A DNA stretch of 64,000 bases from positions 19,355-83,354 of the forward strand of contig JAGLDS010000006.1 of the NCBI GenBank assembly GCA_023145435.1, given 5' to 3'. Shown here in pieces: positions 15,150-25,610 of this stretch (the stretch's first letter is position 1; each line of letters opens with the position of its first letter). This DNA comes from Clostridiales bacterium (GTDB lineage Bacteria > Bacillota > Clostridia > DUPQ01). A program made the translations under genes and the position numbers. Below the pieces are notes generated by a model that made no database searches, had not been told where the DNA came from, and saw only the letters and a program-made list of their open reading frames with translations.

Positions 15150-16250
15150 ATGAAAAAAACACCTATTAATGAATTGCATAAAGAACTGGGTGGAAAACTA
15201 ATTGATTTTGGTGGTTGGGAGTTGCCTGTTTTATATACATCAATTATTGAAGAGCATAATGCTGTTAGAGAAAATGCAGGATTATTTGATGTATCTCATA
15301 TGGGAGAAATAACAATAAAAGGTAGAGATGCAAAAGATTTTGTGAACTACCTTATAACCAATGACATAAAAAACATGAAGGAGCAACAAATAATATATAC
15401 TCCTATGTGTTACCAAGATGGTGGGACAGTAGATGATTTACTCGTTTACAAAAAAAATGAGCAGGATTATTTTTTAGTAGTTAATGCTTCAAATGTTTTA
15501 AAAGATTTTAAATGGATAAGTGATCAAGTTAAAGATTTTAAAGTGACTATTAACAATGTTTCTAATGACTATGCACAAATTGCCATACAAGGGCCAAAAG
15601 CTGAAATGATTTTGCAAAAACTAACTAGTACTTCATTACAACAAATTACCTTTTTTACATTCAATGAAGCGGTTGATATAAATGGAATTAAAGCATTAGT
15701 ATCAAGGACAGGTTATACAGGAGAAGATGGTTTTGAAATTTATGCAGATGCAAAAGATGGAAGTGAATTATTTTCTCTACTTTTACATGCTGGTAAAGAC
15801 CATGGAATATTACCTTGTGGATTAGGCGCTAGAGATACTTTGCGTTTTGAAAGCGCGCTACCATTATATGGGCATGAACTTACAAAAGATATAACTCCAG
15901 TTGAAGCGGGACTTACTTATTTTATTAAACCTGAAAAAGACAAATTTATAGGCAAGGATAAGATTGTTAAGCAAATAGAAGAGAAACCTAAAAGAAGACT
16001 GGTTGGTTTTGAAATGATAGATAAAGGGATTGCAAGAAGTGAGTATACAGTACTTGACGAGGAAGGTAACAAGATTGGATTTGTTACTAGTGGTTCTTTT
16101 TCACCAAGCCTACAAAAAAACCTAGGATTGGCATTAGTTGAGCGTTCATATAGAAAACGAGACACCTTAATATATATTGAAGTTAGAAATAAAATAAAGC
16201 AAGCTAAGGTAGTTAAAAAACCTTTTTATAAAAAGAAATATAAAAAATAA
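15150..16250 (+). CDS. gcvT: Glycine cleavage T protein
   Basis: GLFDVSHMGE, SRTGYTGEDGFE, GLGARDTLRFE. Confidence 0.97.
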   Translation: MKKTPINELHKELGGKLIDFGGWELPVLYTSIIEEHNAVRENAGLFDVSHMGEITIKGRDAKDFVNYLITNDIKNMKEQQIIYTPMCYQDGGTVDDLLVYKKNEQDYFLVVNASNVLKDFKWISDQVKDFKVTINNVSNDYAQIAIQGPKAEMILQKLTSTSLQQITFFTFNEAVDINGIKALVSRTGYTGEDGFEIYADAKDGSELFSLLLHAGKDHGILPCGLGARDTLRFESALPLYGHELTKDITPVEAGLTYFIKPEKDKFIGKDKIVKQIEEKPKRRLVGFEMIDKGIARSEYTVLDEEGNKIGFVTSGSFSPSLQKNLGLALVERSYRKRDTLIYIEVRNKIKQAKVVKKPFYKKKYKK

Positions 16251-16264
16251 TGGAGGAAAAAAGA

Positions 16265-16648
16265 ATGAATCTAGTACCAGGATTATTATACTCAAAGGAA
16301 CATGAGTGGGTTAAGGTAGAAGGAAATGATGCTTATGTTGGAATCACTAATTATGCTCAATTACAATTAGGTGATATCGTATATGTTGAAATTCCAGAAG
16401 TAGATGATAACATAAAAAAAGGAGAAGTATTGTGTACTGTTGAATCAGTTAAAACAGCAGCAGATGTATTTTCTCCACTTTCAGGAATTATAACTAAAGT
16501 AAACGAAGAACTAGATGATGAACCTGAAAAAGTTAATGAGCAACCTTATGAAGCATGGCTTGCTGTTATTACCATGAGCGATTTAACACAATTAGATGAG
16601 CTATTAGATGAAAAAGCTTATGCTAAATATTGTGAAGAAGAGGAATAA
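16265..16648 (+). CDS. gcvH: Glycine cleavage H protein
   Basis: YSKEHEW, LGDIVYVE, lipoyl site VESVKTA; ATG 16265 after GGAGG. Confidence 0.97.
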   Translation: MNLVPGLLYSKEHEWVKVEGNDAYVGITNYAQLQLGDIVYVEIPEVDDNIKKGEVLCTVESVKTAADVFSPLSGIITKVNEELDDEPEKVNEQPYEAWLAVITMSDLTQLDELLDEKAYAKYCEEEE

Positions 16649-16650
16649 CA

Positions 16651-17958
16651 ATGGCAAGATATATACCTAATACTAATGAGCAACAAGTTGAAATGCTGCA
16701 TGCTATTGGTGTAAAAAATATAGAGCAGTTATTTGATATAATTCCAAAAGCAGTTAAATTTAATGGACTACTTAATATTCCTGGTGGGTTAACTGAAATG
16801 GAAATTATAAAATATTTTTCCTCTTTAGCTAATTTAAATAAAACCACAGATGACTATATATGTTTTTTAGGGGCAGGTGCTTATGATCACTATGTACCAT
16901 CAGTAATAGACCATATGTTGAGCCGACAAGAGTTTTATACCTCATATACGCCATATCAACCAGAGATTTCACAAGGAATGTTACAAGCTATTTTTGAATA
17001 TCAGACAATGATATGTCAATTAACGAGTATGGATGCTTGTAATGCTTCAATGTACGATGGACCAACAGCTTTAGCTGAAGCGTGCGTTATGGCCTATTCA
17101 ACACAAAAAAGAAAAAACAAGATTCTATTATTAGATAGTATTCATCCAGAAGCTAAACAAGTAGTGTCTACATATTTGCAGTATAGAGATGTAGATATTG
17201 TACAAACTACTTTAGAAACACTTGTTGATGATATAGATGAAAACACTGCATGTCTTTGTGTACAAACACCAAACTATTATGGACAAGTTGAAAAGTTAAA
17301 AGAATTAGGTGAAGCTATTCATAAAGTAAAAGGATTATTAGTTGTATATACAGATCCAATATCTTTAGGGATTTTACAACCTCCTGGAGATTTTGGGGCA
17401 GATATTGTTGTAGGCGAAGGACAAGTTTTAGGAAATCCTTTAGCCTATGGAGGTCCTTATCTTGGCTTTTTTGCAGTAACTGGAAAATTAGTTAGAAAAA
17501 TGCCAGGACGGATTGTTGGGCAAACAGTTGACACAGAGGGAAAGAGAGCATTTGTTTTAACGTTACAGGCGAGAGAACAACATATTAGGCGAGAAAAAGC
17601 TACATCAAATATTTGCTCAAATCAATCACTAAATGCATTGGCTGCAACAATCTATTTATCAGTAATAGGGAAAAAAGGGATAAAAGACATTGCTAAACGT
17701 TGTCTTGTTAATGCCCATTATACTTATGAGCAATTAATTGATACAGGTTTATTTGAAAAAGTATCAGATAAACCGTTTTTTAAAGAATTTGTTGTTAAAT
17801 GTAAAGCTAATGTAAGTAAGATTAATGACCACTTAATAGAGAATGGATTTTTAGGAGGTTATGATTTAGGAGACGGATTGTGGCTAGTGGCAGTTACGGA
17901 GAAGAGGACAAAAGAAGAAATTGATTTATTTGTGAAAGTGGCAGGTGAAGTAGTATGA
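16651..17958 (+). CDS. gcvPA: Glycine dehydrogenase subunit 1
   Basis: [35 protein letters not shown]. Confidence 0.97.
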
Positions 17959-19400
17959 AAAAATTGATTTTTGAAATATCACAACCAGGACGAAGTGCTT
18001 TTTCTTTACCACCAACTTTAATAAAAGAACAACCACTAGAAAATTATTTACCAAAAGAATTAATTAGAAAAGAAAGTGCACCTCTTCCAGAAGTAAGCGA
18101 AGTAGATGTAATTAGACATTTTACACATCTAAGTCAGCGAAATTTTGGAGTAGATCAAGGGTTTTATCCATTAGGATCTTGTACAATGAAATATAACCCT
18201 AAAATAAATGAAGATATTGCCAGATTAAATGGGTTTGTAAATGTGCATCCTTATCAACCTTATAACACAACACAAGGCGCTTTAAAAGCCTTGTATCATC
18301 TTGAATTGTTGTTGTGTGAAATTACAGGCATGGATCAAATGACTTTACAGCCAGCAGCAGGAGCTCATGGAGAAATGGCTGGATTAATGATGATAAAAGC
18401 TTATCATGAAGCAAAAAGCGATCATAAACGTACTAAAATAATATGTCCAGACTCTGCTCATGGAACAAATCCTGCATCAGCTGCCATATCAGGATTTGAT
18501 GTTGTAACTGTTCATTCCAATGACAAAGGACTAGTAGATATTAATGATTTAAAAGAATTAATGGATGATCAAGTTGCTGGATTAATGTTAACTAACCCAA
18601 ATACTTTAGGCCTTTTTGAAGAAGAAATTATGGAAATAGCAACTATTGTTCATGAAAAAGGTGGCCTTCTATATTATGATGGAGCTAATGCAAATGCAAT
18701 TTTAGGAAAAGTTAGACCAGGTGACATGGGCTTTGATGTTGTTCACTTAAATTTACATAAAACATTTTCCACACCACATGGTGGTGGTGGACCAGGTTCA
18801 GGACCAGTTGGAGTAAAAAAAGAGTTAATTCCCTATCTTCCCATACCAATAGTGAAAGAAAATAATAATGAGTTTTATCTTTCATATAACCATCCTTTAA
18901 CAATAGGAAAAATCAGATCTTTTTATGGTAATTTTTCTGTGTTAATTAAAGCTTATGCATATATTTTAACTATGGGCAATAAAGGATTAAAAGAAGTTTC
19001 AGAAAATGCAGTGTTAAATGCTAATTATGTTATGTCACAAATTAAAGATGATTTCATAGTTCCTTTTGGTACATCGTGTATGCATGAGTTTGTATTATCA
19101 GGACAATTACAAAAAGAAAAGGGTGCTTCTACGTTAGATATGGCTAAACGATTACTTGATTATGGTTATCATCCGCCAACTATCTATTTCCCTTTAATCG
19201 TCAAAGAGGCTATGATGATTGAACCTACAGAAACAGAAGGTAAAGAAACATTAGATGAGTTTATAAAAGTTATGAAAGATATTGTGGCTGAAGTTGATAA
19301 AAATCAAAGTTTAGTTCATAATGCGCCACATACCACAGTGGTTAAACGTCTAGATGAAGTTATGGCTGCTAGAAAACCAATTGTAAAGTACACACCTTAA
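17955..19400 (+). CDS. gcvPB: Glycine dehydrogenase subunit 2
   Basis: [30 protein letters not shown]. Confidence 0.97.
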
Positions 19401-20494
19401 TTGTGTTTACCTAAAATGTGTTTTCTAAAAAATGCTTTCCATAAAGAACAATAAGAGTCATAGGGAGAATTCATTAGAACATCTTTTGGAAACCCTATGA
19501 TTTTTTTGTACAATGATAAATCATTATTTGTCATTGTATAACCATGCCATCCTAGTTTTCCAAAAACAGTTTTTGGTGGAGTTAAGTTCTTTTTAGAACA
19601 AACCATGTTTTTTTTATTATTCCCATACTTTTTACAATCTAATAAAACCCATTCATCAATTTTAATAGAAGAGACTTCATTAAAAAATGAAAGCATAATA
19701 TATATTGTATAAGAATAAGAACTATTCTTTATTATATTAATAATCTCTTTCCAGTTAATAGCATCTTCGTTTTCTAAAATTGTATATAAATCAGTTACCC
19801 ATCTTATAATAAAAACAGGATCCCAAGTAGCCGCATGGAGTAGAGTGTTTATAATTTGATTTTCAGGCGTTAGTACATTTACAGCTACTCCTTTATAATT
19901 AAGTGCAATAGTTTTAGTAAGAGTAATATTTATATTTCTAAGATAATTGCTTTTCCAATGTAAATCGATTTCAAAACCAAGGCTATTAGAAAAAGCGAAG
20001 GAATGCCTAGTATCTATATTAGTAGCAACATCATATGAAAATTGTGGTGAAAAGCCATGTGATTGTAAAACAGAAATAGTATCAGGGATTTGTTTTTTTG
20101 TAACAAGTAAATCTATATCATTCATATGCCTTAACCCTTTATCTTGGTCATAGGTTAATATAATTGCTAATCCTTTTATTACTGTGAATGGAATATGATT
20201 TTTATTTAATTCTCTTCCAACTGATAATAAGTTATTAAAATGAATACTATTTTTGAATAGAGTTTTCTTATAAACACCTTTATATCTATTGATGTTTTCA
20301 TCAACTATGTTGCCTTTTACTAGTCGTTTATATAGTAAAGGAAGAAGACGATAGCTTTCTCCATCAATATAATCAACAATATTAACTTGGTTTATCCAAG
20401 CATCATAATAGATAGGTAAATCAAAAACATTACCAACAATAGCTTGTAATAAATATTTTTGAGAAGAAGTAATTGAAAGCTTAAGATGTTTCAT
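19397..20494 (-). CDS. Nucleotidyltransferase (NTP_transf_5-like)
   Basis: IKGLAI...[12 protein letters not shown] and EIDLHW motifs. Confidence 0.8.
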
Positions 20495-22881
20495 TTTCTT
20501 TTTTCCTTAATTCGTTTAGCAAATACTTTAGCAAAATCTTGACGGTTTTGCTTATTAATAATACCAAAATTATTATAGTGCATTCTACGATACATAAGAA
20601 CTTTTGGGATAATAGCAGAGCGTAATTGACTATCATCTAAACGTCCAATCCAATCAATAGATTCTCCAACTCTTAGCTGTTCATCAAAAAAACCAACAGT
20701 TAGAAAATCTTCTTTTTTTATAAGCATAGTTCCTGCATGACGTCCCTTTGAAGGGTTGGTGGGACATATGTACTTTGACTTATATGCTTGATTAACTTCG
20801 CTAGAATAAAATTGACTTATGTGTCCAAAGACCACATCAGTAGTAACGTCAAAAAGAAGTCTCTCAAGTTGAATTTGTAATTTGTAAGGAACCCACACAT
20901 CATCATGATCTATAAAAGCCAAGTAATTTCCCCTAGCTTTTCTAACACCTGTATTTCTAGCACCACCTATTCCTTTGTTCTCTTGATAACAGTAAATAAT
21001 TCTATCATCTTTATAACTGTCAACTAATTGTTTAGTGTTATTAGTTGAACCATCATCTACTATAATAATTTCAAAAACAGAATGTGTTTGAGCAACAACT
21101 GAATCAAGGCATGTAAGCAAATGAGTAGTTGAATTATATGCTGGAATAATTAAACTAATTAATACATCTTCTTTTCTTTTTTTTCGCTTAATGGAAGTTG
21201 ATAAAATCTTAAATATAAATTGTCTATTTTTTTGAATATCACTTGAAATGTTATTATCGTGAATTAATTTATCATATAATATTTCATCTAGAGTATGAAT
21301 TTGTAACGATGATTCAATTATCCTATTTAAAAAATCAAAGTCTTCACCTAATTTTAGAGATTCATTGAAAAGACCAAGTTGATTTAAAACTGATTTCTCT
21401 AGAAGTTGACTACTTGGAACTCTAGTTGAATATCTCTTTTGGTGTTCAATTGTTTGAACCCAACTATAATCTTTAGTTGGATCTTCAAAAACTAAATTAT
21501 GTTTAGTAAAAAGAACAGATACATCTGGATGATATCTATGATAAGTAATTTGTTTGAAAAGCTTATCTTTATACCATACATCATCGTGATCAATAAAAGC
21601 GATTAATGACCCTTTTGCATAATTTATACCTAAATTTCTAGCAGCACCAGGTCCGCTATTTTCTTGGTAGTAGTAAGAAATATTTTCACTTTTATATGAT
21701 TTAATAAGAGTAGCAGTATTATCAGTTGAACCATCATCAACTATTATTAATTCTACTTGTTTATGAGATTGGTTTAACACACTATCTATTGCTTTTTTTA
21801 TGTACTTTTGTCCGTTATATACTGCCATTATGACTGATACCAGTGGGTGGTGGGTAATAAAGGTCTGTAAACCTAATATATTTTTTTCAATTTGATTACT
21901 TAATGTATATTCATATACTGGAAAACTTTTTACTAGTTTTGAGATATGCTTAATAAATGAATGATTTGCTCCTGGTAATTGAAACATAGTACTAGCACCA
22001 ATTGTGGCTAAGGCTCTTGTTTTTGGTATTTTTTCTATGTGAACTTGTTTTAAATCTTGTCTATTAATAAAGATAATTCCTTCTAACTTGAATCGCTTAC
22101 CAATGGTTTTATGAGGAATATCTGTTATAAATAAATAACCCTTTTCTTCATTGGTAGGTTTATTTACTAAGAAATTATTTACTATTGGGAAAAGTTTAAT
22201 CATATCGTTATTAATTTTAATAGTATTATAAATAGAGGTGACATAAGGGTGATCATTATTTTCAATTATGACATAATCATCACCTAATAAGGTACTACCT
22301 TCAAATAAACTTAACATGGATAAAGTGGATTTTCCAACACCACCTCGCCCTGCAAGAAGATAACCACTATCACTATTTGAAATAGCCGCTGAATGAATAA
22401 GTGTCATATTGTTTTTAACGCAAAACCAATGAAGTAACATTCTCATTGGGCAAGCTTTTTCATAATAAGGCATGGTTTCTAATGAATTAACAACATAATA
22501 AGCATTTTGATTTGGAAAATCAATAAATGTCATCATTGATGTTAAAATATTATAGAGTAAATGAGTATCTTCATGATTAAAAAAGTAAGTGGCGTTTACA
22601 ACATTATTTGCATTTTCTCCTGTAATTATATCATAGGGCATTTTAATTGATGTAGATAATTCATCAAAAATATGAACAGTTAATACATAATTGTCACATG
22701 GTTTCACAAGAAGATGTTCAAAAGGTTTACAGAGTACATTAACCAATGTATCGTTGGCAAATAAAAAGCGAATAGGGATATTGTTTATTATTAAGTACTT
22801 TTCAACTGGTTCGAAAGAACAAGCTTCATTCCAATATTGTTTAATAATGTTTTTAATTGCGCTATATCGTTTTTCACTCAT
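20491..22881 (-). CDS. Fusion of an HPr-kinase-related kinase with two GT2 glycosyltransferase domains
   Basis: IHSAAI..LLAGRGGVGKST..LGDDY kinase motifs, then VSVIMAVYN..DDGSTD..FIDHDD and ISLIIPAYN..DDGST..FIDHDD. Confidence 0.85.
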   Translation of the reverse strand: MSEKRYSAIKNIIKQYWNEACSFEPVEKYLIINNIPIRFLFANDTLVNVLCKPFEHLLVKPCDNYVLTVHIFDELSTSIKMPYDIITGENANNVVNATYFFNHEDTHLLYNILTSMMTFIDFPNQNAYYVVNSLETMPYYEKACPMRMLLHWFCVKNNMTLIHSAAISNSDSGYLLAGRGGVGKSTLSMLSLFEGSTLLGDDYVIIENNDHPYVTSIYNTIKINNDMIKLFPIVNNFLVNKPTNEEKGYLFITDIPHKTIGKRFKLEGIIFINRQDLKQVHIEKIPKTRALATIGASTMFQLPGANHSFIKHISKLVKSFPVYEYTLSNQIEKNILGLQTFITHHPLVSVIMAVYNGQKYIKKAIDSVLNQSHKQVELIIVDDGSTDNTATLIKSYKSENISYYYQENSGPGAARNLGINYAKGSLIAFIDHDDVWYKDKLFKQITYHRYHPDVSVLFTKHNLVFEDPTKDYSWVQTIEHQKRYSTRVPSSQLLEKSVLNQLGLFNESLKLGEDFDFLNRIIESSLQIHTLDEILYDKLIHDNNISSDIQKNRQFIFKILSTSIKRKKRKEDVLISLIIPAYNSTTHLLTCLDSVVAQTHSVFEIIIVDDGSTNNTKQLVDSYKDDRIIYCYQENKGIGGARNTGVRKARGNYLAFIDHDDVWVPYKLQIQLERLLFDVTTDVVFGHISQFYSSEVNQAYKSKYICPTNPSKGRHAGTMLIKKEDFLTVGFFDEQLRVGESIDWIGRLDDSQLRSAIIPKVLMYRRMHYNNFGIINKQNRQDFAKVFAKRIKEKRK

Positions 22882-23290
22882 CTTTTTTATGAGGCCATCC
22901 TTCTTCTTTTACTTCATGAATTGGATCTAGTAATAACATTTCACGCATATCATCAAATTCTTCAATAAGAGGAGCTATATATGGTTGAGGTATATGATTT
23001 GTATCTGATGTTTGAGAAGAGATACCTTCTGTTAGTAATTGCTTATCTAATAAGTATGAAAGTATTTTAGTAATATCACTAGTAGCAGTATTTTTATCAA
23101 CTGAAAATACTAATTGATATCCTTTTATAACTTGCTCTTGGATATCTCCATTATTAAAGGTAAAAAAGATATATGAGGCTGTTTCATTAAAGCTATAATA
23201 GCAACCTGTTTCAAGATTGATAACAACAGTATCTTTGTCAATTTCTTCACTGATAATGCGTTCATCATCAATAAAATATTGTTTATTCAT
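22874..23290 (-). CDS. PqqD/RRE-family protein with C-terminal peptide extension
   Basis: EEIDKDTVVINLETGCYYSFNETASYIF...DITKILSYLLDKQLL fits the PqqD fold pattern; AGGAGG RBS; extra tail YIAPLIEEF...LLLDPIHEVKEEGWP. Confidence 0.8.
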   Translation of the reverse strand: MNKQYFIDDERIISEEIDKDTVVINLETGCYYSFNETASYIFFTFNNGDIQEQVIKGYQLVFSVDKNTATSDITKILSYLLDKQLLTEGISSQTSDTNHIPQPYIAPLIEEFDDMREMLLLDPIHEVKEEGWPHKKDE

Positions 23291-23369: not shown

Positions 23370-24485
23370 ATGGGATTAAAGAAGATAAAAGATGTTTTAA
23401 TTTATAAAGATGCAAGATATTATTCAACGTTTCCAAACATTATAAAATTAAAAGATGACACTTTATTGGTGTCATTTAGACAAGCTCCTAATCGTTTAGA
23501 AACCTATGGGGATATTACACATGGTGATCCTGCTTCAAAAGGAGTTTTTATTACTTCAAAAGATAATGGGAAAACATGGGATAGTGATGTGTCTATAATT
23601 CATGATCACTTTTTTTATGGAGTACAAGACCCATGTGTTAACTATCTAGAGGATGGAACGATTCTCTCAACTTTTTTCATGTGGAAATTTGGTGAAGCAA
23701 AAGATTATCCTAATGCAACTAGAAAAATGCATGCAGGCTACAGTGAGCATGTAATGTTTTTAAAAGATGCCTATACTACTCGCTCTCATGATGAGGGAAA
23801 AACCTTTGAAAAACCATTAAAAATTGACTTTTATGGAAAAGAAAAGACTAATACTGTTAGGGGAAATGTGGCTAAACTACCTGATGGAAGTATTGTTTTA
23901 GCAGTTGCAGGTTATCATGATGTTATGAATTTAAGAAAAATAAGCATAATACAAAGTTACGATCAAGGGAAAACTTGGAAACGATTAAACACTATTCCAG
24001 TGGTACCTAATGCATTTATGGGAGAACCAAATCTGTTTTTAACAAAAGGCGAAAAACTTGTATGTATGTTGCGAACACATAAAGAAGATGGAGACAAAAG
24101 TGTATATGATGATGGTAATAATGATATGGCATATATGCATTATTCAGTTTCTCTAGATTTTGGTAAAACCTGGTCACAACCTAAAAAAACACCATACACA
24201 TCACCATCACCTTTTGAAGCCATACAATTAAAAAGTGGAAATGTGCTAATGACTTATGGAAACAGATATAAACCATATGGAATTAAAGCAATTTTATTAG
24301 ATGGTGAAATGAATAATATTGAAAGTGCAAGCGAAATGCAAATAAGAGACTGCGGTATAAATCATGACTTAGGATATACACGTTCTGTTCAATTACCAAA
24401 TGATGATATTTTAGTAGTTTATTACATGTATGATGAAAAAGATAAAATAAGACATATTGAAGGGACAATACTAAGAGAAATATAA
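23370..24485 (+). CDS. BNR/Asp-box (sialidase-like) beta-propeller protein
   Basis: Asp boxes SKDNGKTW, SHDEGKTF, SYDQGKTW, SLDFGKTW; DLGY near the C-terminus; no signal peptide. Confidence 0.8.
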   Translation: MGLKKIKDVLIYKDARYYSTFPNIIKLKDDTLLVSFRQAPNRLETYGDITHGDPASKGVFITSKDNGKTWDSDVSIIHDHFFYGVQDPCVNYLEDGTILSTFFMWKFGEAKDYPNATRKMHAGYSEHVMFLKDAYTTRSHDEGKTFEKPLKIDFYGKEKTNTVRGNVAKLPDGSIVLAVAGYHDVMNLRKISIIQSYDQGKTWKRLNTIPVVPNAFMGEPNLFLTKGEKLVCMLRTHKEDGDKSVYDDGNNDMAYMHYSVSLDFGKTWSQPKKTPYTSPSPFEAIQLKSGNVLMTYGNRYKPYGIKAILLDGEMNNIESASEMQIRDCGINHDLGYTRSVQLPNDDILVVYYMYDEKDKIRHIEGTILREI

Positions 24486-24494
24486 GAGGTAAAA

Positions 24495-25610
24495 ATGCTA
24501 TTAAAAAAAATCAAAGATATACTTATCTACAAAGATAAAAGATTTTACTCCACATTTCCAAATGTAATTAAACTAAAAGACAATACCTTAATGGTTTCTT
24601 TTAGACAAGCTCCTAATCGTTTAGAAACACATGGTGACTTTACACATAATGACCCTGCCTCAAAAGCTGTATATGTAACATCAAAGGACAACGGAAAAAC
24701 ATGGGATAAAAATGTTAGTGTAATATATGATCACTTTTTTCATGGAGTACAAGATCCTTCAATGAACTATTTAGAAGATGGAACAATTCTTTCCATGTTT
24801 TTTACATGGAAGTATGGAGAAAAAAATGATTTTCCAAATGAGACTAGAATAATGCATGCAGGATATTCTGATCATGTAGCAATGATGGTAGATACATTTT
24901 CGACACGTTCATATGATAATGGGAAAACTTGGGAAAAACCAATACTTGTTGATTATTACAAGAAAGAGTCAAAAGTTGCAGTAAGGGGAAATTGTGTCGT
25001 ACTTGATGATGGAAGTCTTGTTTTAGCAATCGCTTGGTATAACAATGATTTTACTAAAAGACTAAATGATATTATTAAAAGTAAAGATAAAGGGAAAACT
25101 TGGGAGAAATTATATACATTTCGTAAAATAAAAAATTTATTTATGACGGAGCCAAATCTTTTTAGGACCAAAAGCGGTAAATTAGTATGTATGATGAGAA
25201 CACATAAAGAAGATGAAAGTAAAAACATATATGATGATGGAAACAACGATATGGCATATATGTATTACTCAGAATCATTAGATGAAGGTAAAACATGGAA
25301 AGATCCTAAAAAAACACCGTATACTTCACCATCACCCTTTGAAGCTATTCAATTGAAAAGTGGAAATGTTTTAATGACTTATGGAAATAGATATAAACCA
25401 TATGGAATTAAAGCAGTACTTTTAGATGGTGAAATGAATAACATTGAAAGTGCTAATGAATTACAAATAAGAAATTGTTGCACTAATCATGACTTAGGAT
25501 ATACACGTTCTGTTCAATTACCAAATGATGATATTTTAGTGACTTATTATATGTATGATGAAATTGATAATATAAGACATATAGAAGGAACTATTTTAAG
25601 AGAAGTATGA
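24495..25610 (+). CDS. BNR/Asp-box (sialidase-like) protein, tandem paralogue
   Basis: Same length (371 aa) and colinear with the upstream gene; Asp boxes SKDNGKTW, SYDNGKTW, SKDKGKTW, SLDEGKTW. Confidence 0.8.
   Translation: MLLKKIKDILIYKDKRFYSTFPNVIKLKDNTLMVSFRQAPNRLETHGDFTHNDPASKAVYVTSKDNGKTWDKNVSVIYDHFFHGVQDPSMNYLEDGTILSMFFTWKYGEKNDFPNETRIMHAGYSDHVAMMVDTFSTRSYDNGKTWEKPILVDYYKKESKVAVRGNCVVLDDGSLVLAIAWYNNDFTKRLNDIIKSKDKGKTWEKLYTFRKIKNLFMTEPNLFRTKSGKLVCMMRTHKEDESKNIYDDGNNDMAYMYYSESLDEGKTWKDPKKTPYTSPSPFEAIQLKSGNVLMTYGNRYKPYGIKAVLLDGEMNNIESANELQIRNCCTNHDLGYTRSVQLPNDDILVTYYMYDEIDNIRHIEGTILREV

Follow-up and report, generated by a model that had tools for sequence, protein, structure and literature searches.

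The RRE-tail protein and its operon

Three overlapping genes on the minus strand of a 64,000-nucleotide stretch of a Clostridiales bacterium genome (GCA_023145435.1, contig JAGLDS010000006.1, positions 19,355 to 83,354; the whole stretch is called the window here) form an operon encoding, in this order, a small protein made of a RiPP recognition element (RRE; RiPPs are ribosomally synthesised and post-translationally modified peptides) with a conserved tail, a protein with a kinase domain and two family 2 glycosyltransferase (GT2) domains, and a PF14907 nucleotidyltransferase. The coding sequence of the 138-residue RRE-tail protein, taken from the list of open reading frames (ORFs), lies at 22877..23290 (stop codon 22874-22876; ORF 22874..23290), and the protein is 100% identical to one protein cluster. 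The gene for the 796-residue kinase-GT2-GT2 protein (20491..22881) starts with an overlap of 8 nt with the end of the RRE gene, and the start of the 365-residue nucleotidyltransferase gene (19397..20494) overlaps the end of the 796-residue gene by 4 nt. The operon leaves no space for a precursor gene.

The initial annotation, made from the sequence alone, had placed the end of the RRE fold near ..LLTE, followed by a polar linker and then a tail, and this layout held. PF05402 (PqqD) matches residues 21-86 with 33.7 bits (cut-off 23.4). In an AlphaFold2 (AF2) model built on a 139-row alignment (mean predicted local distance difference test score, pLDDT, 85.1; predicted template modelling score, pTM, 0.75), the RRE scores 87-98 and its final strand covers residues 86-89. 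Together with Foldseek and the family profile, this delimits a PqqD-type winged-helix domain of residues 1-88 (23027..23290). It is followed by the variable polar linker GISSQTSDTNHIPQP (residues 89-103, 22982..23026), the least conserved part of the protein, with a pLDDT of 77 for residues 91-100. The translation of 22874-22981 gives the rest of the ORF, YIAPLIEEFDDMREMLLLDPIHEVKEEGWPHKKDE and the stop. Within it, we distinguish a leader-like segment (residues 104-120, 22931..22981; [Y/F]xxPx[L/I]-E-K/E-F/Y-x-D-M-x-E/D-L/M-L-L) on the basis of conservation, AF2 and covariation, a near-invariant block (residues 121-133, 22892..22930; L-D-P-I-H-E/D-V-x-E/D-x-G-W-P), which is the most conserved part of the protein, and a short variable C-terminus (residues 134-138, 22877..22891; conservation 1.1) that is often Lys-rich in the family.

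The RRE is of the lasso-B1 type, in line with the initial annotation. In Foldseek, the AF2 model was matched to TbiB1 (5V1U/5V1V) with a template modelling score (TMt) of 0.87-0.89 (E 6e-6) and to TfuB1 (6JX3) with 0.83, and the family profile scores TbiB1 at 68 bits, PbaB1 (9X90) at 55, TfuB1 at 35 and LppB, the RRE of a recently described peptide pathway, at 32, while a true PqqD reaches only 14. The curated lasso B1 models nevertheless stay below their cut-offs (NF033530 with 36 bits vs 70, NF033536 with 29.6 bits vs 80).

A profile search against 1.84 billion cluster representatives returned 14333 matching representatives at E<=0.001, 3185 at E<=1e-10 and 96 at E<=1e-30. Among the 150 matches listed, 149 carry the tail, as they reach profile position 134 or beyond. 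A pattern scan using one genome per species gave at least 599 stretches, 564 of which were confirmed as relatives, and 80 loci were kept for context analysis. According to their titles, these loci come from Clostridia, Smithella and other Desulfobacterota, Chloroflexota, Cyanobacteria, Acidobacteriota, Verrucomicrobiota, Chlamydiota, Planctomycetota, Actinomycetota, Nitrospirota, Gemmatimonadota, Bacteroidota, Pseudomonadota and others. One metagenome-assembled genome (MAG) among them is labelled archaeal (Bathyarchaeia), although its locus resembles those of Smithella; here a single 425-residue frame (L032:2788-4065, +) unites a GT2 domain and the RRE-tail protein, which may be a true fusion or a missing stop. 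PqqD proteins without the tail also occur in relatives. No Pfam model covers the tail, and when only the tail was searched against the ESM Atlas, the best score, 0.76, lay under chance level.

Conservation was measured as bits multiplied by occupancy over 139 aligned family members with a single RRE. Because the profile or pattern that retrieved them contains the tail, the values hold for the family with the tail rather than for all PqqD proteins. The mean is 1.68 for the RRE and falls to 0.41 in the linker, before rising to 2.01 for residues 104-109, 2.85 for 110-120 and 3.45 for 121-133; the YxxP motif and the DPIH..GWP block are therefore both far more conserved than the linker, as the initial annotation would have it, and the pattern exceeds chance. 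His125 and Pro133 are kept in 139/139 sequences, and Asp122 and Trp132 in 138/139. In the leader-like motif, position 104 is Tyr or Phe in 129/139, Pro107 is present in 136/138 and position 109 is Leu, Ile or Phe in 124/138. Spacing is just as constant: 18 residues separate the aromatic residue from the Asp of DPIH in 223/236 sites, and this Asp lies 9 residues from the Gly of GWP in 210 sites and 10 in 22. What follows GWP is short across the family (median 6 residues, minimum 3). In 11 close homologues, F112, D114, L121-H125 and G131-P133 are all invariant. The full LDPIH..GWP block was found in 79/80 loci; the sole exception is a Halioglobus MAG (L077:7983-8405, +), where LDPIHEV is kept and GWP is absent.

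The leader-like segment and the RRE groove

Known lasso RREs bind separate leader peptides, and the initial annotation had proposed that the YxxPxL-like motif of the tail docks on its own RRE. Both the structure prediction and the covariation within the family bear this out. AF2 gives residues 101-110 a pLDDT of 97 and forms a strand at 109-112. In a natural fusion of three RREs and a kinase, the three pseudo-leaders are likewise all ordered in the AF2 model (pLDDT 94, 83-89 and 95).

Covariation was calculated as mutual information with average product correction (MI-APC) on 209 unique family sequences, setting aside 12 pairs that are linker-gap artefacts. The strongest remaining pairs all join the RRE to the tail (72-104, 30-116, 83-111, 63-101, 75-106 and 76-109). 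In 83 sequences Tyr104 is accompanied by a polar residue (D/E/Q/N) at position 72, and in 82 Phe104 is accompanied by a non-polar residue there; 32 sequences are exceptions, and the two positions have changed state on the tree at least 54 and 45 times. Positions 83 and 111 form an acid-base pair in 149 sequences and a base-acid pair in nine, the window protein included, and are never like-charged. For each of four pairs, none of 2000 shuffles reached the observed mutual information, in a control that ignores relatedness.

The covarying positions can be placed on a solved structure. In the alignment, window D72 corresponds to LppB D70 and window position 76 to LppB F74. In the crystal structure of LppB with its leader (9x8z), D70 hydrogen-bonds leader Tyr-16 and F74 divides the cleft, and the leader, in its C-terminal part, contacts the RRE nowhere (PMC13381572). 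Covariation within one chain hence reproduces a contact solved between two molecules. The residues of the TbiB1, TfuB1 and PbaB1 grooves that contact the leader are also those that covary with the tail here. Those complexes are bimolecular, whereas in the window protein a linker of 15 residues connects RRE and peptide.

From sequence covariation and the model, residues 104-112 ([Y/F]xxPx[L/I]EEF) very probably sit between helix alpha3 and the beta-sheet, in the leader groove of the protein's own RRE. A domain-swapped dimer, in which the contact is made between two chains instead of in cis, is possible. Docking in cis would leave the RRE permanently loaded, and the covarying salt bridge and hydrogen bond indicate a stable rather than a displaceable complex.

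The operon enzymes and related pathways

In the 796-residue protein, the kinase domain comprises residues 1-340 (21862-22881), and the GT2 domains lie at about residues 346-540 and 575-780. PF00535 (GT2) scores 233 bits over these two stretches, above its gathering score, whereas PF07475 (HPr kinase) reaches 21.1 bits against a cut-off of 33.3. The sequence nevertheless contains a P-loop (GGVGKST) and a DDY motif, as well as two copies of VDDGST / IDHDD. The GT2 domains are nearest to polysaccharide GT2s (TuaG 193 bits, EpsD 146 bits, all below cut-offs). The 365-residue protein matches PF14907 with 101.7 bits (cut-off 31.2) and has D-I-D at residues 126-128. Sequence searches of the PDB gave no match for the nucleotidyltransferase and only E 0.4 for the kinase domain. 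For the kinase part of a fused homologue modelled with AF2 (P0013), the nearest Foldseek neighbour is ATP-dependent phosphoenolpyruvate carboxykinase (PEPCK; E 7e-10, about 390-417 columns), and HPr kinase/phosphorylase (HprK/P) ranks 40th (E 6e-5).

Kinase homologues were found in 63 of the 80 loci, GT2s in 65 and nucleotidyltransferases in 47, several contigs ending early. In the 79 loci with a recognised tail ORF, the kinase gene comes next in 46, lies further downstream in 12 and elsewhere in four, and was not found in 17, four of which have no room for it. Nature has also fused the two, as RRE-tail-kinase proteins (about 580 residues) and as proteins with three RREs and a kinase (about 780-850 residues); a search with one of these fusions gave 149 clusters at E<=1e-10. 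In the multi-RRE fusions, every RRE has an aromatic-xx-P/L-x-L segment, but LDPVH..GWP occurs in only one. Of 41 relatives, six have a full-length tail protein in their genome, and a strong kinase match occurs in exactly these six. We conclude with good confidence that the RRE-tail protein is functionally coupled to the kinase.

The initial annotation had called for a multimer prediction with the kinase. Three runs of the 796-residue protein with the 138-residue protein, alongside three controls, gave an ipSAE of 0.32 (runs 0.32, 0.00 and 0.33), compared with 0.00 for the best control. Of 80 solved complexes, 58 reached the mark used with this score, as did 2 of 110 mismatched pairs; at an ipSAE of 0.60 or less, those reaching it were only 7 of those 80 solved complexes, together with both passing mismatches. 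Agreement between the runs is at least 0% of contacts, the partner pLDDT is at least 74, and no interface is given. The prediction thus lends weak support to binding, which is likely beforehand because natural fusions exist, and says nothing about the conserved block.

Lasso-type genes occur in other relatives. In one such cluster (L007, G011:C11:44368-47607), a kinase of 326 residues, a tail-less B1 of 83 residues, a B2-like peptidase of 139 residues and a second kinase of 322 residues stand together, and similar pairs of a tail-less PqqD and a kinase were seen in G007, G009, G013, G019 and G020.

Around the window operon, the flanking genes are unrelated. Upstream, two tandem paralogous BNR/sialidase-like proteins (PF13088) are encoded divergently at 23370-24485 and 24495-25610 (+), and one such gene is retained beside the operon in the closest relative contig (L011). 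Downstream, a gcvT-gcvH-gcvPA-gcvPB operon for glycine cleavage (15150-19400, +) converges with the nucleotidyltransferase gene, the stop regions overlapping by 4 nt. PADLOC assigned no defence family, its only hit being AbiEii at 14.5 bits on the nucleotidyltransferase.

The absence of a separate precursor noted in the initial annotation extends beyond the window. The 8613 small ORFs of 79 loci included none that is both free and conserved. Small-ORF clusters present in at least four loci were considered as precursors and rejected, as they all overlap ORFs of at least 120 residues. A search of 5.8 billion proteins for stand-alone tail peptides of 30-74 residues found a single candidate of 51 residues, which we also discarded: its first residue is Leu, its contig measures 1271 bp, and it is probably a fragment. 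At 69% completeness, the genome of the window has the 138-residue protein as its only PqqD match and no match to the lasso B2 leader peptidase (PF13471), an absence that this completeness does not prove. No SpI-like (SipW-type) or other peptidase was seen among the operon proteins or the scanned neighbours (without a dedicated S26 search), and no Asn-synthetase-like macrolactam cyclase among the three operon products (without a search aimed at one).

The closest published system is that of the linear polyphosphorylated peptides (LPPs; LppA/B/K/S/D/N) (Popov et al., Nat Commun 2026; PMC13381572). As described there, it too combines a discrete RRE with an HprK-like kinase and a nucleoside triphosphate (NTP) transferase, and its leader motif YxxPx[V/L] lies in an alpha3/beta groove, with a Tyr-Asp hydrogen bond and an acceptor at Tyr+18. 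The two differ in that LPP has a separate precursor, whereas the window protein carries the leader motif and the RRE in one chain. The LPP leader is removed by a signal-peptidase-like leader peptidase, whereas the window operon has neither an SpI-like peptidase nor an exporter. The LPP acceptor is a Ser in a variable core, in contrast to the invariant Asp and the invariant LDPIH-x5-GWP block here, and only here are GT2 domains fused to the kinase. LPP was also reported as restricted to Bacillota, while the RRE-tail family spans many phyla. A separate precursor of the LPP type (YxxPxVLxHQxIxFETxxS, Ser at core position 3) was not encountered in the RRE-tail loci.

Phosphorylated and glycosylated lasso peptides (paeninodin, Bsf and pseudomycoidin) share the B1-type RRE (PMC8498205, PMC10368454, PMC6993621). 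HprK-like lasso kinases act on a precursor recognised by the RRE, either at a C-terminal Ser or, as with BsfK, at Ser3 of BsfA (PMC8498205, PMC10368454), and the pseudomycoidin nucleotidyltransferase PsmN is needed for the hexoses on the phosphate (PMC6993621). Unlike these systems, the window operon has no precursor gene, its genome shows no B2, and its RRE falls under the lasso B1 cut-offs.

PqqD-family chaperones are also paired with HprK-related P-loop proteins in the HPr-rel-A (TIGR04352 kinase A, TIGR04353 PqqD) and SynChlorMet (ScmC/ScmD) cassettes, for neither of which do we know of a substrate. The window kinase, however, scores only 39 bits with TIGR04355 and 37 bits with TIGR04352, against cut-offs of 200, and the RRE has no TIGR04353 match at E<=0.01. 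No curated family fits: the lasso B1 models, TIGR04352/04353/04355 and PF07475 are all under their cut-offs. Neither an RRE with a fused leader nor this cassette was seen described in the literature consulted.

The LDPIH-x5-GWP block and its possible roles

The initial annotation had proposed a fused chaperone-precursor, with the conserved block as either the core or an enzyme-docking motif. The self-docked leader-like motif stands, and LDPIH..GWP may be a core, and hence a substrate, or a handle. In the AF2 monomer the block is disordered (pLDDT 50 for residues 121-130, below 50 for 121-124, and 50-56 for 121-138). A handle for the kinase was one candidate, and this role is not favoured: in the fold of a 781-residue natural fusion of three RREs and a kinase, the block was left unordered (pLDDT below 50 for residues 127-146). 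Moreover, in an alignment of 72 kinase-fused sequences, L126, D130, P131, H133, W140 and P141 are invariant; as the block is kept where the kinase is covalently attached, it is not merely a kinase-recruiting handle.

A comparison with LPP suggests another role. Its precursor has the consensus YxxPxVLxHQxIxFETxxS with the Tyr at -16, and LppK polyphosphorylates Ser3 (PMC13381572), which places the acceptor at Tyr+18. Asp122, at aromatic+18, falls in the same register, with Asp in 223/236 sites. The reading we tentatively prefer, as a real possibility short of a probable one, is that chaperone and substrate are united in one chain, making this protein a leader-in-cis relative of the LPP and phosphorylated lasso pathways. 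With similar caution, the block may be the site modified by the kinase, the nucleotidyltransferase and the GT2s. The RRE is very probably loaded in cis by its own leader, and residues 121-133 form a flexible arm with Asp122 held at aromatic+18; this arm would be the working end of the protein. The loaded RRE would hand this arm to the co-translated kinase-GT2-GT2 protein and the PF14907 nucleotidyltransferase, which would modify it, most likely around D122/H125, adding a phosphate and then a sugar. Such a scheme needs neither a leader peptidase nor a separate precursor gene. A more specific version, which we consider unlikely, is that the PEPCK/HprK-like kinase phosphorylates a carboxylate or imidazole (Asp122 or His125) and that PF14907 and the GT2s build a phospho-linked glycan. 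This would be a class of protein-borne modification spread over many phyla, its product either a protein-primed glycoconjugate or something conserved and cofactor-like, formed with no free precursor peptide and no leader peptidase.

Several observations weigh against a modified arm. Ser, Thr and Tyr are conserved nowhere in the block; outside it, position 113 is Thr in 61, Ser in 21 and Asp in 28 of the 139 sequences, and Tyr104 alternates with Phe. LppK is strictly Ser-specific, S3A, S3T and S3Y not being phosphorylated (PMC13381572), so that by analogy an Asp is no obvious acceptor and could be a mimic. The lack of a conserved hydroxyl and the specificity of LppK together argue against ordinary phosphorylation. 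The block is disordered in AF2 even with the kinase in the same chain, and in fusions it is internal rather than a free C-terminus. The complex prediction is weak, with one run of three at 0.00 and no interface. Invariance across phyla is unlike most RiPP cores and would rather be expected of a protein-protein contact motif. No leader peptidase was found among the gene families present in at least six of the 80 loci, so nothing suggests that a peptide is released. Finally, six Chloroflexota loci (L035, L037, L044, L048, L053 and L073) have other genes in place of the kinase. In all five of these Chloroflexota genomes that were searched, however, the kinase is found elsewhere, flanked by GT2 genes, and in two of them it lies about 11 kb downstream on the same contig, which speaks for its coupling to the tail protein. 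The genes around the Chloroflexota tail proteins encode an ABC exporter, NMT1/BPD/ABC importer-like proteins, a methyltransferase and adenylation-carrier(-acyltransferase) proteins, and in L053 and L073 a Wzz/BY-kinase-like gene lies upstream.

Some of these observations would be explained if the protein were only an adaptor, which we regard as possible but rather doubtful. The cis-loaded RRE would then be a scaffold and the arm a linear motif that recruits or activates the nucleotidyltransferase, a GT2, an exporter or another conserved protein, while the real substrate would be something else, possibly a glycan or a lipid-linked intermediate of a cell-surface polymer. Invariance over many phyla with no conserved hydroxyl residue fits this, as does the predicted disorder, which is typical of linear motifs. 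The affinity of the GT2 domains to TuaG and EpsD, the Wzz/BY-kinase-like proteins, GT4s, sulfotransferases and ABC exporters of related loci, and the location of LPP clusters in capsule loci (PMC13381572) all point the same way. However, an adaptor leaves the shared register with the LPP phospho-acceptor unexplained, the kinase cannot be the recruited partner since the motif is invariant in kinase fusions, and an RRE with a filled groove cannot bring in a peptide, so that its retention would need another reason.

The register itself admits a different explanation, namely that the tail imitates a precursor in its phosphorylated state, Asp standing in for phospho-Ser. Such a pseudo-substrate or regulator would fill the groove and the enzyme site until a true precursor, encoded elsewhere, displaces it, or would act as an allosteric switch that turns the enzyme on. 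Besides the Asp exactly at the Ser3 register, this agrees with the alternation of Thr/Ser and Asp at position 113, with the preference of the LppS peptidase for phosphorylated precursor (PMC13381572), and with the separate lasso-type clusters of relatives, with their tail-less B1 and HprK-like kinases. Nonetheless, we find it improbable: the window genome, at its 69% completeness, shows no B2 peptidase and no second PqqD, its surroundings hold no conserved precursor, the covariation indicates a complex that is not easily displaced, and a decoy would need no kinase-GT2-nucleotidyltransferase operon of its own in many phyla.

Lastly, the Asp-Pro bond in LLLD|PIH might be a self-cleavage or protease site that frees PIH..GWP and the few residues after it. 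The invariant D-P-x-H resembles the N|PTH self-cleavage motif of the FlhB/YscU export proteins. Lasso and LPP leaders are also cut at a point only 1-2 residues away from this site (PMC10368454; PMC13381572). A cleavable core is nevertheless very improbable, given that no peptidase is conserved in the loci, that 400-650 more residues, the kinase included, follow the block in fusions, and that the residues after GWP are short and variable.

Very many bacteria have a protein of this design next to a kinase, sugar transferases and a nucleotidyltransferase, which points to a pathway not yet described, with the protein perhaps serving as its own substrate. RREs have been regarded as receptors for separate leaders, and genome mining for RiPPs relies on an adjacent precursor gene. 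The RRE-tail family instead shows an RRE binding a leader fused to itself, which explains a large number of 'PqqD family protein' annotations left as orphans next to HprK-like kinases, GT2s and PF14907 enzymes, and it extends the enzyme set of LPPs and phosphorylated lasso peptides far beyond Bacillota. It also offers a soluble, self-loaded substrate for studying the PF14907 'NTP transferase', which is inactive or unexplained in both published systems, and, in the invariant LDPIH-x5-GWP arm, a precise and testable target.

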